A program made the translations under genes and the position numbers. Below the pieces are notes generated by a model, which had not been told where the DNA came from, searched no databases, and worked only from the letters and a program-made list of their open reading frames with translations. A DNA stretch of 64,000 nt from Candidatus Heimdallarchaeum endolithica (GTDB lineage: Archaea > Asgardarchaeota > Heimdallarchaeia > Heimdallarchaeales > Heimdallarchaeaceae). The DNA is taken from NCBI GenBank assembly GCA_021513715.1, contig CP084167.1, positions 2,048,001-2,112,000 on the forward strand, in the 5' to 3' direction. Below, in pieces: positions 36,384-64,000 of this stretch; position 1 is the first letter of the stretch, and every line of letters begins with the position of its first letter.

Positions 36384-37079
36384 ATGGTCTCAAACGAAGA
36401 AAAGCAGAAGAAAATATTTAACACAGAAATAAACAAATTTTATTTTTTAGCATTAACGGGAAGCATTTTGTTTACAATAGCAGCAGCAATAAATCTGTCG
36501 AACAGGACAATACAATACTTAAGAGCAGTAAATTGGTTCTTTGATTATATTTTTGCAGCAGTAATAGCTTTAAGCTTAATACCAATAGCATTAAGCTTCG
36601 GAGGAATAGCAGACCTATACTTTAAAGATCACGTCAGAAAGGAAGGAATGCAAGGAAGAACATATTTGTTGATTTATGCAATAGGAGAAATATTAAAACC
36701 ATTCACTATAGGAAGCGTGGTCTTCGGAAGCTTGGCGATTCTAATAAGTCTAGCGTCAAGAGCAATGGGATTCAGAAAAATAGATCTAATGCTAACAAGA
36801 ATAAAAAAAATAACAGATATTAAAGTGGGAAGTATATTATACCAAATATTCGGATTCTATTCAATAATTGTTTCAGTAATAGCTTCAATAGCTAATGCAG
36901 CAGGAGATGAAGAATTACTAATTTATCTACTGGTATTCAATGGAACAATAGAAACAATATTGATGATAATGATAGGAATAAAAATAATAGTAGATGTGAC
37001 GATAATAAAAAGATACATCAAAAGAAAAAAAATAAAACCAAGATATATGAGAATCTACGGAACAATAAGAGAAAAATAA
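36384..37079 (+). CDS. Membrane protein, paralog of 32148-32813
   Basis: About 6 TM; aligns by eye with 32148-32813. Confidence 0.75.
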   Translation: MVSNEEKQKKIFNTEINKFYFLALTGSILFTIAAAINLSNRTIQYLRAVNWFFDYIFAAVIALSLIPIALSFGGIADLYFKDHVRKEGMQGRTYLLIYAIGEILKPFTIGSVVFGSLAILISLASRAMGFRKIDLMLTRIKKITDIKVGSILYQIFGFYSIIVSVIASIANAAGDEELLIYLLVFNGTIETILMIMIGIKIIVDVTIIKRYIKRKKIKPRYMRIYGTIREK

Positions 37080-37174
37080 AGTCTATCACTATCAAAAAAG
37101 GTGTAACTATCACTATCACTATCACTATCAAAAGATAAACAAGGCGAAACAAAACGAAAAAGAAAACAAAAGAA
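37070..37174 (+). repeat. (CACTAT)n-containing dispersed element
   Basis: gaaaaataaagtctatcactatc is identical to the reverse complement near 43791-43813; hexamer run and aaacaaaacgaaaa also shared. Confidence 0.8.
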
Positions 37175-37609
37175 AAGAAGAAATGGTGCGGGGAGAGAGA
37201 TTCGAACTCTCCAAGCCTAAGAAAATAAATCAGTATAAACAGAATAACATTTTTTAACAAAATCATCAATAATTGTTCCTTCAACAGGAAATAGGTAGTG
37301 TTTAAATGACCACCTAATCCTTGAATTATTTTCATAAATAGCTTTTATCAATATTTTTTTGGGTATTTTGCTCCCTTTAAAAAAAGAGAAATAAAATTTT
37401 GATTATTATATTTTCACGCCACACCCCACCAATATTTTGTCGGAAGAAACTATGTACCACCAAAATTGGATTAAGGTAAGATTAGAATTTTAAACAAAGG
37501 TTAGAAAATTTAACAATTATAAAATAAACACGTATAATTTTATCTTATTGAAGTCAGTCAACTTTTTTTGGAAGTGTTAATAAAATAAAAAAGAATAAAG
37601 AGAAACAGT

Positions 37610-37770
37610 GTTAAACTTGGGCTAAGACAAGATTAAAATTATAAAGTGCTAAAAGTTCTACAAGATTAAAAGAAGTTAAAATTGGACTAAGATAGGATTG
37701 AAATGACTTAATTAAAGAAATAAGCTGGTGTTGAATAATAGTTAAAATTGGACTAAGATAGGATTGAAAT
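37610..37770 (+). CRISPR. Cas-less mini CRISPR array (3 repeats, 2 spacers)
   Basis: GTTAAAATTGGACTAAGATAGGATTGAAAT at 37675 and 37741 (1 mismatch to main repeat); degenerate copy at 37610; spacers of 35 and 36 nt. Confidence 0.88.
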
Positions 37771-38493
37771 AGAAGTTTGAAAAGTCTCAGCAAATTGACG
37801 AGGATCAACCTTAGAACGAGAAGAACCAAAAGCGAAAACAGCCTTATCAAAACCACAAATATACAGAAAGGACTTAAAATAAGAACTAACCTCTTCAGAA
37901 CGAAGAAAAGGAAAAAAAGGAGGAAAAGGAGGGAGAAAAGAAGACGGAAGAAGAGATGAAGAATTAAAACGATGACGCATAAGGAGACGATAGGAAGGTA
38001 AAAAAGAATCAAAATAGGAAAAGAAAAAATCATAAAATTCCTCAAAAGAGAAAAAAGAACTGAAAAAGGAAGAAGATAAAAAATTAAAATCTAAATCAGA
38101 TAAAAAAAAGAATGCAAAATCAGATAAAAAATTAGGAAGAGAAAAATGCAAAAAAGAAAAATGAGCATAAAATAAAGAAAAATTGCAAAGAGAAAATTTA
38201 CGGGAAGAAAAAGAATCAAGGAAAAAGGAAAGAAAAGATTTCCAATTAAAATGAGAATCAAAAAAATGAAAAGAGGAAGAAGAAAGAGAGAAAGGATCAT
38301 TAAAGGAAATAAGTAAAAAAATGTCCCTTACAAAAAAAGAAAGAGAAGAGGGAGAAGAGGAAGAAAGAAGAGAAAGAAAAGAAAAAAAATCAGGGGAAGA
38401 ATCAATAAAAGTCTGAAGTAAAAAAACAAATTGAGGATCGTGAAGAAAAGAAAAAGAATCGATAACAGAAAAAGTAGGAGAAAAAGCAACCAT
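37753..38493 (-). CDS. Putative Phe/Ser-rich 246-aa protein ending inside a CRISPR repeat
   Basis: ATG shortly downstream of tRNA-Leu; long open frame, but T-rich strands open easily. Confidence 0.4.
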   Translation of the reverse strand: MVAFSPTFSVIDSFSFLHDPQFVFLLQTFIDSSPDFFSFLSLLSSSSPSSLSFFVRDIFLLISFNDPFSLSSSSFHFFDSHFNWKSFLSFFLDSFSSRKFSLCNFSLFYAHFSFLHFSLPNFLSDFAFFFLSDLDFNFLSSSFFSSFFSFEEFYDFFFSYFDSFLPSYRLLMRHRFNSSSLLPSSFLPPFPPFFPFLRSEEVSSYFKSFLYICGFDKAVFAFGSSRSKVDPRQFAETFQTSISILS

Positions 38494-38536
38494 AAAGAAA
38501 AAAGGAAAAGGAAATATATAAAGATAAAAGAAGAAA

Positions 38537-38621
38537 TGGTGCGGGGAGAGAGATTCGAACTCTCGAACCACTAAGGACTGGATCCTAAGTCCAGCGCCTT
38601 TGACCGCTCGGCAATCCCCGC
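38537..38621 (-). tRNA. tRNA-Leu(TAG)
   Basis: GCGGGGA/TCCCCGC, CTGGA-CT TAG GA-TCCAG, variable arm, CCA. Confidence 0.96.
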
Positions 38622-39386: not shown

Positions 39387-40766
39387 ATGCTTTTTACTTT
39401 TAAAAAAAGAAAAAATAATTCATTCATGCTTTTACTGTTCGTCTTTTCTTCTCTCATGCTCTTTTCTCCTGATTTTAATCTAGTCACTTCTTCTGCTTCA
39501 AGTTCAGGTACCTTTCCTCCTCCTGATGGTATTTGGAACATTACCGAACCTACAGTTGTTGAAAACGAGTTTATTAAACTTACCAACAGAGTTGATATCA
39601 AGGACGAAGGCTCTCTTATTCTTCGTAACTGTTTTATTGTTATTGAACATGATCGAGTAGGTTCTCTCGGTATTTATGCTATAGACAATTCTTCTTTAGC
39701 GATCTATGATACTACTATCCTAACTTACACTGACAGTCCTTGGTATATTGGTGTAGATAATAATGCCCATCTTCATCTTGAGGGTTCCACTCTTATTGGA
39801 GGGTCGGATAGAACTTATTCACGCGAATTGATACGATTATACAGTTCTGATAATATCGTTATTAACAATTTTATCACTCATACTCGGGGAGCAATAGATA
39901 TCCAATACGGTTCTCACAACTTGGTTAGTGGTAACAACATTTCTCATAATAGTGCAAGCAGTATTGATATGACTGAAAGTTGTTTTAACGTTATTACTAA
40001 TAACTACATATCGTATATTAGTTCATTGGCAATTCGTAGTTCAGGACATAATAACATCATAACAAATAATACTATTACTTATACCAGGTATGAAGGAATA
40101 AGCGTAAGTGGGGATAATAACACCGTTACTGATAACGTTATTTCCGAGAGCAGAAGAAATGGCTTGGGTGTAGGTGGATCTAACAATCACCTTTCTTCTA
40201 ATATGTTGTTCAATAATAGCAACTATGGTCTATATATTTACAAATCTGCTTCTAACAACTTTATCTCTCGTAATGTTTTTTTCAAGAACAATCAAGGTAA
40301 CAACCTTTCTCAAGCTTTTGATGATGGGGTAAATAACACTTGGTTTGACCCCGTCTATTCTATTGGCAATTATTGGTCAGATACCGATGGTTCTGAACCT
40401 TACCCTATCGATGGTGCGGCTAAAGCTTTTGACCCTTTTCCTCGTGGAAGCGATTTCGACGAAGATAACCTTCTGGATTATCTTGAAGATCATGTTTATG
40501 GTACTGACCCCTGGAATCCTGATTCGGATGGAGACCTTTTACCTGACGGTTGGGAAGTTCATTATGGTTCTGACCCTTTAACTCCTGATGCTTATCTTGA
40601 TTTTGACGGCGATGGTTTGACCAACCTTGAAGAATTTTATAACCATACCAATCCTTTAGTTAAAAATCAGATGATGCTCTTAGCGATAGTTCTCTCTCCC
40701 CTATCTTTTGTTTCACTTTTCTCGCTTAAAAATCTCCTCCGTTTTTTAAAAAATAGGAGAAAATAG
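39387..40766 (+). CDS. Surface protein: right-handed beta-helix (NosD-like), Ca-binding DxDxDG repeats, C-terminal TM (copy 1)
   Basis: Signal-like N-terminus, Asn-ladder repeats, GNYWSD, DSDGDLLPDGWE, hydrophobic anchor with basic tail. Confidence 0.85.
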   Translation: MLFTFKKRKNNSFMLLLFVFSSLMLFSPDFNLVTSSASSSGTFPPPDGIWNITEPTVVENEFIKLTNRVDIKDEGSLILRNCFIVIEHDRVGSLGIYAIDNSSLAIYDTTILTYTDSPWYIGVDNNAHLHLEGSTLIGGSDRTYSRELIRLYSSDNIVINNFITHTRGAIDIQYGSHNLVSGNNISHNSASSIDMTESCFNVITNNYISYISSLAIRSSGHNNIITNNTITYTRYEGISVSGDNNTVTDNVISESRRNGLGVGGSNNHLSSNMLFNNSNYGLYIYKSASNNFISRNVFFKNNQGNNLSQAFDDGVNNTWFDPVYSIGNYWSDTDGSEPYPIDGAAKAFDPFPRGSDFDEDNLLDYLEDHVYGTDPWNPDSDGDLLPDGWEVHYGSDPLTPDAYLDFDGDGLTNLEEFYNHTNPLVKNQMMLLAIVLSPLSFVSLFSLKNLLRFLKNRRK

Positions 40767-60382: not shown

Positions 60383-60646
60383 TTATATGAATTGCCCTGT
60401 TTCTACTTTTTCAATCCCTAAGTTAGACAACTTAACTAGTTCTTTACTTCGTATAGTATAAATTCTCACACAATCATGTTCTTCATTCATTAGACGTTTT
60501 AGGCCATTTTCTATTTCTACTAGTTGTGTTTTCGTTATTTCTCCTTCAAAAACTGAATTTTGAACTCTTTCTAAGAAGCATCTCAGAAAGTTACATACTT
60601 TTGACACTCTTTCTACTCCCACGTCATAAACTATTATGGCATACAT
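60383..60646 (-). CDS. cas2: CRISPR-associated Cas2
   Basis: IIVYDV, RVQNSVFEG. Confidence 0.96.
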   Translation of the reverse strand: MYAIIVYDVGVERVSKVCNFLRCFLERVQNSVFEGEITKTQLVEIENGLKRLMNEEHDCVRIYTIRSKELVKLSNLGIEKVETGQFI

Positions 60647-60647
60647 T

Positions 60648-61727
60648 TTACCACCAAATTACGAAGGGTTCATATTTTTTCATCCCCAATAAATGTTTGC
60701 ACAATTTTATGCATTCCAAATAAATCAATCTCTCATAAGAAACATTTCTTTTAAGGGAGCGATGTTTTATTGTAGAATTTAATTTTTTCTCATATTCCAT
60801 CACAAAAATTTTTTTACCTTTTTCATTCAACAAGCAGCTATTTAACTCTTTTACAAAATGCTTTTCTGTTATTATCTGTTTGTTAGTTAATTTAAATATG
60901 ACCCGATCTACTATTAATGGTTTAAATATTTCTGAGAGGTCTAAAGATAGTGAATATCTTCTTTCTGATGGTTCATGTAAAAAAGCGATTGTTTGATTCA
61001 ATTGTGTGTGGTAAATATTTTTTATTATTGTTGAATAAAGAAGGGCGTTTCCAAAACTTATCATAGCATTAATAGGATTCAGGGGAGGTTGTTTTGTTCT
61101 TTTCTCAAATTTAAAAGTATTTTTTATAATAACATCAAAGCAGGCATAATATTTATTCCGTATACCACCTTCAAGAGCTCTTAATTTGTTAATATCAATT
61201 ATATTTGTGATTTTTTTTATCTCATTTTCAATATATTCTATCTTACTTTCAAAGTCTCTTCCCTCGCTTTGGTAATATTTTAGATTTCTCAACATATTTA
61301 GAGATGCTCCTTCAATAAATTTTCTTGCTAGAAGAATTCTCTTTCTGTAATCTAAGTAGTGTGCAGCTTGGTTTATATGCATTTTTCCAGACAGTAAACT
61401 TTCTTTTGGAATAATGGAACCCTCATAATTACCATAATATCCAAAGAAATGGACGGGGATTGATTTTTTGCATAGCAAGGAGATAACTCCTGAAGTAAGA
61501 GATACTCTACCATATAAAAACAGATTTCCTATTTGCTCAATTGGTAAGATCCTTTTTTCATATTCAAGTTTATTGGCAATATTTTCTGTTTCAACGTCAA
61601 ATTCCTCTTCATCAATCTCGGCCTTAAATACTTTATTATTTTCTTCTTGTTTTTGATAAATGAAATAAATGGTATTATATTTTCTAATTAATTTACCATT
61701 TTTTAAAATATAGAAATTTTTATTCAC
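60648..61727 (-). CDS. cas1: CRISPR-associated Cas1 (type I-B)
   Basis: NAMISFGN..LY, FLHEP, SLSLDLSEIFKP, F..WW end. Confidence 0.96.
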   Translation of the reverse strand: MNKNFYILKNGKLIRKYNTIYFIYQKQEENNKVFKAEIDEEEFDVETENIANKLEYEKRILPIEQIGNLFLYGRVSLTSGVISLLCKKSIPVHFFGYYGNYEGSIIPKESLLSGKMHINQAAHYLDYRKRILLARKFIEGASLNMLRNLKYYQSEGRDFESKIEYIENEIKKITNIIDINKLRALEGGIRNKYYACFDVIIKNTFKFEKRTKQPPLNPINAMISFGNALLYSTIIKNIYHTQLNQTIAFLHEPSERRYSLSLDLSEIFKPLIVDRVIFKLTNKQIITEKHFVKELNSCLLNEKGKKIFVMEYEKKLNSTIKHRSLKRNVSYERLIYLECIKLCKHLLGMKKYEPFVIWW

Positions 61728-61730
61728 TTT

Positions 61731-62243
61731 TCACACCCAACAAAACTCAAAATATGCACATTTTCTACAATAACTTTTTTTTTCAGGTTTTGGAGGACTA
61801 GGCATTGCAAGTATTTCTTTTATTTCAGCTAATATGTTTTCTAACTTTTTTTCTATTTCAGCATTTAAAGTTAAATTGATTCTTTTTTTAACAAGAGGAT
61901 AGTCAATAATTCCTTCTACGAGTTCAATTTTTTTGGTCCGTTTAAGATAATATATATAATAATAAAGTTGATATTTATGCGCGTCCTCAAGACTTTGTGA
62001 TTTTTTAATTTCATGCAAAATCAATTTTTCTCCTTTTTTCAAAAAATCAATAGCTATTTTGTTATCAACGATAATGTTTTTTTTCATTCTAGGATAAGTT
62101 ACTTCATGAATAAAACTACCTAGTCTTACTTCTTCAGAGGATTGTTCCATTCCCATGTTATAGGAAAATAACCACAGCTTTGTTTTGCATACTATGGAGT
62201 AATTGATTTGTAACCCCCTAAAAAAGTCGAACTCGTTCAGCAT
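61731..62243 (-). CDS. cas4: CRISPR-associated Cas4
   Basis: VCKTKLWLF, HEIKKS, QL.YY, CRKCAYFEFC. Confidence 0.95.
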   Translation of the reverse strand: MLNEFDFFRGLQINYSIVCKTKLWLFSYNMGMEQSSEEVRLGSFIHEVTYPRMKKNIIVDNKIAIDFLKKGEKLILHEIKKSQSLEDAHKYQLYYYIYYLKRTKKIELVEGIIDYPLVKKRINLTLNAEIEKKLENILAEIKEILAMPSPPKPEKKSYCRKCAYFEFCWV

Positions 62244-62306
62244 AATAATTTCATTTTACTAAAATATTAAAGCATTTTTAAAAATTTTAAAATTGGCTTT
62301 TGTTTT

Positions 62307-64000
62307 TTAAATTATGTTTTCTTCTTCAATTTCAAGCTTATCCATATTCAAATTTTCTAGCTTGTTAATTCCTAGTTCTTTTATTTTTTTTAATGAACTA
62401 TGGGGTAGTTGCTTAAGAACATAGAAGCCTTTAAACATTTCTCGTTCCAAAAAAACGTATGTTTTAAAATTTTTACCAAAAGCGTAAATAGGGACATGAA
62501 AGGAATAGGAATATAATTTTTTTAAGATAGTCCACTTGCTCGTTTCTATCTGTGTTTTCTTTTTAATTATTTTTGCAATGCTATTGGTACTTTCATTTTT
62601 GCTTTCAAATGGGAGAACCCAATTATCTTTGTTTGTTCTATCAGCAATTAGTGCACCTAATGCTTTTTCGATTTCATCATCACCAAATTCTTTCATTACG
62701 TCAGGTATCAGTACTTGAATTCCTGCCATGCGCCTAAAAACGGTTTGCGCTTGACTTTTCTTCTCCGCGGAGAAATATTTTAACCATTCAAGTGTCTCCT
62801 CTATTTTTTCTTCATAATATTCTCTAAGCGTTCTACCATTAATCTTCGCTTTAAAGACTTGCTCTATTATTTCTCTTTCATTTTCATAATTTAGTATCCC
62901 CTTTTTCTCATATTTTTCTAATACTTCAATCGTTTTATTTAGCATTATCTCTGGTTGGTAAATAGCTTTGGTTCCTTTGTCTATTCCAGTATAGATGTAC
63001 ACATTCGGAGTTGATTCTTTGTAGTCACTTTCTCTGTTCCTATAAATACGCCCCCATCTTTGAATTTGTGAGTCTACAGGAGATATTTCAGTAATTAATA
63101 TATCAAAGTCCACATCAACAGATGCTTCTACCATTTGTGTAGAAATAAGTATTAAATGCTTCCGATTTTTTAAATTATTCTTTATTTTTGATATTCTCTT
63201 ACTCTTTTCTTTTTCAATTATTCTAGAATGCAAAAGTTCTGCATATATTTTATGATTTTTAAACGTTTCATATAAACTAATAGCTTTTCCTACATTATTA
63301 ACAATAATAAGGACATTTTTATCAGGATTAGTTGTCAGTATCTTATTTAACTTTCGGAAAGAATCTTTTGAAACAAAGTAGGATGGGTTATTGTCTTTAG
63401 AATCGTAATTAAAGAGCAAATCATCGATTAATTGAATCTTATGTCTTCTGAGGGAAAAGTTCTTTATTGATTTTTTATCAGAGATATCTTCTTTAAGATC
63501 AATGAGTGTAAAATCTAGATTTATTTCTTGTGTATTTCCTTTGTTTTTAAACAAAAACTTTCGAAAGTATGGAGGAAATGTTGCTGTGATAATAAGTATT
63601 TTACCACTTAATTTATTTATTATCTCTAATGTTTTTATAATTATTGCAGCCATCTCTGGATTATAAGCTTGAATTTCGTCAATAATTACTGTACTGGTTG
63701 GATAAAGAGAAAGAACTTTATCGAAACCATAATATTTCAACGATGTTAGAAAGATCTGATCAGGTGTTGTTAACAAAACAGGGGTAGAAAAAAGTTTAGC
63801 AGAAAGCATTTTGCAATTTATATCTATCTTCTTTCCTTCTTTTTCTTCATCCAAATATTCCATAAATGATGTAGAATGGAGGATACCCAAGTATTTTTCA
63901 TCAAAATAGTTAATTTCTGCTTTTTTTCCATTTTTTGCTATTTTAAACTCTTGAAATCGAGTAAATAAATCATTTAATGCAACACGTAAAGGGAGTGTAT
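62307..64000 (-). CDS. cas3: CRISPR-associated helicase Cas3 (5' part outside window)
   Basis: TLPLRVALN, IDEIQAY, TAT, HSR, STQMVEASVDVD, QRWGR. Confidence 0.93.
   Translation of the reverse strand, partial: TLPLRVALNDLFTRFQEFKIAKNGKKAEINYFDEKYLGILHSTSFMEYLDEEKEGKKIDINCKMLSAKLFSTPVLLTTPDQIFLTSLKYYGFDKVLSLYPTSTVIIDEIQAYNPEMAAIIIKTLEIINKLSGKILIITATFPPYFRKFLFKNKGNTQEINLDFTLIDLKEDISDKKSIKNFSLRRHKIQLIDDLLFNYDSKDNNPSYFVSKDSFRKLNKILTTNPDKNVLIIVNNVGKAISLYETFKNHKIYAELLHSRIIEKEKSKRISKIKNNLKNRKHLILISTQMVEASVDVDFDILITEISPVDSQIQRWGRIYRNRESDYKESTPNVYIYTGIDKGTKAIYQPEIMLNKTIEVLEKYEKKGILNYENEREIIEQVFKAKINGRTLREYYEEKIEETLEWLKYFSAEKKSQAQTVFRRMAGIQVLIPDVMKEFGDDEIEKALGALIADRTNKDNWVLPFESKNESTNSIAKIIKKKTQIETSKWTILKKLYSYSFHVPIYAFGKNFKTYVFLEREMFKGFYVLKQLPHSSLKKIKELGINKLENLNMDKLEIEEENII

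Follow-up and report, generated by a model that had tools for sequence, protein, structure and literature searches.

This locus raises the question of how a CRISPR mini-array comes to lie inside a small cassette at the 3' end of a tRNA-Leu gene. The window, the whole 64,000-nucleotide stretch of DNA analysed, belongs to the 3.33-Mb single-contig genome of Candidatus Heimdallarchaeum endolithica, whose sister species is Ca. Heimdallarchaeum aukensis PM71. The integration target is tRNA-Leu(TAG) (38537-38621, minus strand). As the first-pass annotation had described, 39-bp direct repeats of the tRNA-Leu 3' end enclose about 1.3 kb. The distal att copy (37173-37211, minus strand; 28 bp of the tRNA 3' end and 11 bp of flank) and the tRNA-side copy (38526-38564, minus strand) match exactly, with 1,314 bp between them. 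Such a duplication is typical of tRNA-integrating elements with a tyrosine or serine integrase. The distal match spans 50 bp in the intact allele L106 and 39 bp or less in the alleles that carry the mini-array, here called chimeric. Neither an empty tRNA-Leu site nor a second cassette location was found among the compared assemblies. Elsewhere in the window, a tRNA-Gly gene is followed by tandem 79-bp repeats, two exact and one partial (55917-56153). H. aukensis has about 35 kb of extra DNA between its tRNA-Gly genes (window 54498; L112-L114), and this DNA includes a beta-helix gene that resembles the ones at 39387 and 42288.

The mini-array reads on the plus strand and has the traits of Cas-less mini-arrays, namely one or two spacers, host-type repeats, and no cas genes in the element. 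Its two intact repeats, R2 (37675-37704) and R3 (37741-37770), are identical to each other and, as annotated before, one base away from the host type I-B repeat (T17G). The degenerate copies lie on the 5' side, which bears out a further claim of the annotation. R1 (37610-37639) departs from the mini-array repeat at 5 positions and from the main-array repeat at 6, and its 5' handle is altered. The copy reported at 37459 is real, with 8 and 9 mismatches respectively when taken from that base, but it is not isolated; it starts at 37462, flush against the end of an insertion sequence (IS). Read from there, R0 (37462-37488) comprises repeat positions 4-30 with 4-5 mismatches, all transitions, and shares G21A and G26A with R1. 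Only one other match of this level exists in the genome outside the arrays.

The spacers comprise the A-rich remnant S0 (37582-37609), the 35-nt S1 (37640-37674), and S2 (37705-37740). S1 and S2 were said to be missing from the main array; neither occurs elsewhere in the window genome, arrays included, where the best other match has 9-10 mismatches, and the search of the host genome gave no self-target for either. No target was found for S0, nor for S1 in the window genome and viral contigs, and the viral contigs hold no exact match to S1, S2, or the repeat. The repeat has no stable secondary structure. No leader was found beside the mini-array; similarity to leaders does not exceed that of shuffled sequences (p 0.19-0.79), while the two host leaders match strongly. 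A likeness of S1 to the leader was rejected on the same comparison with shuffles. In the window genome the T17G repeat occurs only in the mini-array, and it is absent from 46 other genomes of the order; it was found in one metagenome contig, which carries the same chimeric allele. Another genome of the family, L083, has a long array whose repeat has G17 as in the mini-array, which suggests that G17 may be the older state of the repeat.

The DNA flanking the mini-array comes from a single gene, one end of it on each side. In H. aukensis, the corresponding insert measures 2.84 kb between the att copies and holds a single frame of 917 amino acids and no repeats; two more assemblies, L024 and L106, also have this intact allele. 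The frame in the intact alleles runs uninterrupted over both junction positions. In the window, the 3' end of the gene (about codons 879-917) lies at 37217-37335 and its Phe/Ser-rich 5' part at 37771-38493, both on the minus strand; the latter is now a 246-aa open reading frame that ends inside R3, and it has a stop or frameshift in other strains. Between them, 435 bp stand for 1,930 bp of the intact gene and consist, in order, of a decayed IS end, a truncated repeat, a MITE remnant, and then repeat-spacer-repeat-spacer-repeat. The att copies, both gene ends, and the intact counterpart in H. aukensis confirm the earlier proposal of an integrated element remnant. Judged by its sequence, the cassette is a broken element and not a protein-less one.

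Among 30 other genomes of the family, 18 have members of the element's protein family. A GFD...ExK motif is conserved in it, and the 917-aa protein has a PD-(D/E)xK-like nuclease motif. No match to the element protein was found among Pfam and PDB sequences, and no integrase was recognised. A first model of the protein was unusable (pLDDT 48). The model of a relative (pLDDT 79) has the HamA nuclease as its best fold match, a weak one (Z 6.3, rmsd 4.0, 167 aligned), with no recombinase among the matches; the protein thus shows a weak predicted resemblance to PD-(D/E)xK nucleases. In L031, L049, L054, L055, and L056, family members lie between two fumarase subunit genes and are flanked by a duplicated beta-subunit 3' end of 75-140 bp (70-76% identical), which suggests site-specific insertion. 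Flanking duplications were not detected for L047, L050, L051, L062, and L068. In L057 and L066, from different genomes, open frames of 2,979 and 4,635 aa terminate in the element domain, and this links the family to giant proteins. A paralogue at G000:C1:2196946-2201238 (L060) abuts tRNA-Arg(TCT) and is split by a 483-aa insertion ORF; it is intact (800 aa) in H. aukensis (L068).

S2 matches the deleted part of the gene. Its protospacer covers codons ~420-431 of the 917-aa frame, directly preceded by 5'-CCA, and the match is 33/36 in H. aukensis (L016) and 34/36 in L024, with the seed intact. All three differences from L016 fall on third codon positions and are synonymous; S2 thus keeps the sequence of a functional allele. 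S2 therefore has a target in related intact elements and none in its own genome. At the right junction (37770/37771), gene sequence takes up again with the base that directly follows R3; in both intact alleles covering this position, that base is immediately preceded by CCA. Within the gene, CCA occurs at 1.2% of positions. Because the gene resumes flush after R3 where the intact gene has CCA, a third spacer, S3 (37771-37806, plus strand), has apparently been fused with its own protospacer. No copy of a fourth repeat survives after it. Between the S2 and S3 sites, which are on the same strand and each preceded by CCA, the distance is 587 bp. The bases after R3 vary between strains, with four variants among the first 17; within 37771-37790, L023 and L101 have a stop codon and L107 has a 1-bp deletion.

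CCA, or CCN in general, is documented as a type I-B PAM (PMC8482600; PMC8406132), and CCA is a candidate PAM for this Asgard type I-B system. The only other protospacer found is that of main-array spacer 25, which is preceded by CAT. The locus also indicates that CRISPR treats this poorly understood family of one-gene elements as foreign.

At the left junction, the gene and the IS end have a 5-bp microhomology in common, TTCAT (37331-37335). What follows (37336-37461, minus strand) is a decayed remnant of the 5' end of a DDE-type IS that is present in several copies and encodes a 232-aa rve/IS6-like transposase. The remnant shares no more than 76% identity with other copies, and its terminus abuts R0 at repeat position 4. 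A decayed, left-truncated copy of a ~110-bp MITE, which has about 20 copies in the genome, sits between R0 and R1 (37492-37581). Together, the IS, MITE, and repeat relics are 72-83% identical to their models, and are thus 17-28% diverged. In contrast, the 435-bp insert differs between the window and L101 at only 6/435 positions (1.4%), so the relics had decayed elsewhere and came as one block. Decay before arrival accounts for the damage on the 5' side. The polarity itself, with a decayed 5' side and an intact 3' side, is not what normal growth at the leader end gives, and prior decay does not account for why the 3' repeats of the donor were the intact and recently used ones. In a separate allele, L103 (about 2130-2284), the left junction and about 24 bases of the IS relic are shared and then give way to unrelated sequence, which suggests either a further rearrangement or a misassembly.

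Five or more other assemblies also carry the chimeric allele, and its spacers are unchanged in them. L023, L101, and L107 have the same array and junctions, so an assembly error does not explain them, and L102 and L108/109 have the same left part. No spacer turnover was found across the four complete alleles. At synonymous sites of the flanking genes, the window and L101 are 10-12% different. L101 and L107 differ at only 8/1,942 positions of the allele, although their flanks differ by 4.3%, and the background of L107 is H. aukensis-like. The tract shared by these two starts near 36851, about 320 bp outside the att copy, and extends past the tRNA; because it reaches beyond att, it points to homologous recombination and not to att-to-att movement. 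By this comparison, homologous recombination has carried the allele laterally into another strain background once. Since mosaicism pervades the population, such a transfer is no proof of selection. Likewise, the IS relic, gene stubs, and flanks are as conserved as the array, so its low diversity does not show selection on it.

The host has a complete type I-B operon with cas6, cas7b, cas5b, an intact cas3, cas4, cas1b, and cas2. It lies 20 kb from the cassette, beside tRNA-Cys, and is missing at the orthologous site of H. aukensis. Within the window, the main array comprises 47 repeats of the same family (57181-60270, minus strand) and is followed by cas2, cas1b, cas4, and cas3 (60383-64000, minus strand), with cas3 and the remaining operon extending past the window. 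An apparent split of cas3 was rejected as an effect of ORF calling. The shared repeat family and the complete operon agree with the annotated view that the mini-array repeats fit the host machinery. Spacer 25 of the main array (58620-58655) matches an integrated region at G000:C1:3794-3829 with one mismatch, despite the intact cas3; this region is part of the published mobilome file, and the CAT-flanked self-target could be an escape mutant. Beyond spacer 25, the main-array spacers have no credible targets in 46 relatives, nor do the nine that were compared with the published mobilome. The array also has duplicate spacers (23, 24, and 42; 34 and 36; 43 and 45; region 57181-58900), a sign of internal recombination. 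A leader-equipped mini-array lies upstream of cas6, about 6 kb past the window (minus strand; L017:9968-10063 = G000:C1:2117967-2118062). Its spacer resembles tRNA-Cys, with 29 matched bases, 13 of them contiguous, and no CCA flank, and lies about 200 bp from the tRNA-Cys gene where the I-B system is inserted; this recalls the homing guides of CRISPR-associated transposons.

The arrangement is quite probably the scar of a type I-B attack that was repaired with the array itself, via S3 on one side and the 5-bp microhomology on the other. A one-gene integrated element encoding the 917-aa protein would have sat in tRNA-Leu, and a I-B system of the same repeat family would have acquired two or more spacers from it, S3 and S2 among them. 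The position of S2, PAM-side of S3, is what primed acquisition would give and fits the priming described for the I-B system of P. furiosus, where roughly half of the spacers gained in this way derive from PAM-side DNA of the non-target strand (PMC7293040). Cascade-Cas3 would then have attacked at the S3 site. The PAM-distal break end is envisaged to have paired with the former spacer S3 at its presumed position in a donor array, with copying leftwards via R3-S2-R2-S1-R1 and the decayed IS/MITE region, and with rejoining to the 3' end of the gene at TTCAT. Microhomology-mediated deletions are known to follow I-B self-targeting in archaea (Haloferax; PMC7521656). The product would have a dead gene, with the S2 protospacer and the S3 PAM gone, and would no longer be a target for that reason. 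Survival alone selects for loss of the PAM side, so the direction of the loss is no independent proof. The donor array was found neither in the window genome nor in 46 other genomes of the order, and has apparently been lost. The mini-array is not cargo that came in with the element; it was inserted into the very gene that it targets.

An unlikely alternative is an aberrant half-site integration by Cas1-Cas2-Cas4, in which a long, PAM-trimmed gene end was joined to R3 and the other end was closed by microhomology. Such an event needs no S3 spacer, would give the same flush, PAM-trimmed right junction, and could use the cas1b, cas2, and cas4 that the host has; the identity of R2 and R3, private variant included, is also what repeat duplication by Cas1 leaves. 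However, it is expected next to a leader-adjacent repeat, and no leader was found. Also against it is the order of steps in Cas4-assisted systems, where integration begins with the non-PAM end and this sets off PAM trimming, which requires a short duplex. It is less probable still that the cassette is a still-mobile, non-autonomous derivative, moved by the protein of an intact element, with a mini-array that excludes the full-length competitor. Both att copies are retained, and S2 aims at a region deleted in its carrier, as in SPV1/SPV2 (PMC6858448). The near identity of the L101 and L107 alleles within more divergent flanks might be read as movement of the cassette, but their shared tract runs beyond att and the tRNA. 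The decay of the distal att from 50 to 39 bp or less, the lack of an empty site or second location among the assemblies, the unchanged spacers in the four complete alleles, and the missing leader also speak against mobility.

It is very improbable that the repeats work as a decoy, in the manner of an RNA anti-CRISPR, or that they provide a guide that regulates the host cas operon as CreA/CreR does. S1 lies between degenerate repeats as in CreA-type RNAs (10.1101/2023.03.03.530964), and a TATA-like motif precedes R2 by 36 nt, but the 5' handle of R1 is changed, the degenerate part is interrupted by the IS and MITE relics, and S2 has an ordinary full-length target. Neither S1 nor S2 has a CCN-flanked 11-position seed match in the genome, the cas locus included. 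Least probable of all is that a full array once stood at the cassette site and has eroded down to its end, an outcome in relatives that the first-pass annotation had named as speaking against its own reading. The IS/MITE damage and degenerate repeats do look like erosion, but the erosion is older than the arrival at the tRNA-Leu site, and the intact alleles contradict such an array with a frame that is uninterrupted over both junctions and free of repeats.

A present function is a separate matter from the origin. With its two perfect repeats and a spacer that would still recognise the intact alleles, R2-S2-R3 might guard the tRNA-Leu site against an incoming intact element, although this is a tentative suggestion with the balance somewhat against it. 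A TATA-like TTATAAAG is found at 37639, 36 nt before R2, as a motif picked out after the fact. A scan with bacterial promoter models scored no better than chance. The proposal that the element programs or decoys the host I-B machinery thus survives in part: programming is possible, with the intact element as its object, while a decoy or regulatory guide is unsupported. Assuming a CCN PAM, no PAM-flanked seed targets of S1 or S2 exist in the window genome. On the same PAM assumption, neither spacer has a seed match in the promoter of a cas or toxin gene such as characterises CreA/CreR guides, and the mini-array is 20 kb from the cas locus.

The virus-borne mini-arrays of SPV1/SPV2 are Cas-less, and their spacers are directed against a related element near the array, at a target deleted in the carrier (Medvedeva 2019, PMC6858448). 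Leaderless mini-arrays are also described from phages (Faure 2019, as cited in PMC6858448 and PMC7099407). The mini-array resembles both in lacking cas genes and in having one or two spacers, a host-type repeat, and a nearby target that is deleted in the carrier. In contrast to them, the carrier is a dead one-gene chromosomal insert and not a virus, and the array lies inside the target gene and destroys it, with a readable capture junction. It also differs from SPV1/SPV2 in showing no leader, spacer turnover, or reciprocal targeting. Since the leader test failed and the carrier looks dead, it is not classed as an SPV-type array. Solitary repeat units and RNA anti-CRISPRs (PMC11656645), like CreA/CreR (10.1101/2023.03.03.530964), share with it the position of repeats away from cas genes and the degeneracy of some of them. 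Unlike those, it has four repeat copies and a full-length foreign target, and no promoter target was found.

The junctions themselves have closer parallels. Recombination of phages with CRISPR loci at a spacer and its protospacer (Varble 2019, as described in PMC8616872) similarly leaves a repeat flush with the protospacer of the invader, with the PAM replaced by the repeat end. In contrast to those recombinants as there described, the present case is natural, fixed, shared between strains, and of archaeal type I-B, and the piece of array lies in the gene of the element with a microhomology junction and not in transducing particles. The self-targeting deletions of the Haloferax I-B system (PMC7521656) also show loss of the targeted region and a microhomology junction, whereas here the gap has been filled with array DNA instead of being closed. 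For the same Ca. Heimdallarchaeum genomes, CRISPR loci C1-C7 have been reported (Wu 2022, PMC8813620). Within the accessible parts of that work, its 46-spacer array fits the main array, its orphan array C4 has 18 spacers by the source data and is unlike the mini-array, and no mention of the mini-array or of the one-gene element was found.

Mini-array spacers often target sites beside the array, with the target mutated or deleted in the carrier, and how this closeness arises is described as unclear (Medvedeva 2019, PMC6858448). Recombination with host arrays has already been proposed for leaderless mini-arrays. The route itself is thus not new; what is new is a natural case with an intact allele, both junctions, and a population spread. 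Because the intact allele, the product, and both junctions are readable, the recombination route can be tested at base resolution. It would be a natural route by which tiny Cas-less arrays arise inside mobile elements beside their own targets. A bolder reading, which is rather improbable as a whole, holds that the break made by the array's own guide was repaired with the array as template, which wrote a working guide, R2-S2-R3, into the element, and that the resulting allele immunises the tRNA-Leu att site and spreads under selection between Heimdallarchaeum lineages. If true, it would provide a one-step origin for target-adjacent mini-arrays, and an att site immunised against one-gene, integrase-less elements.
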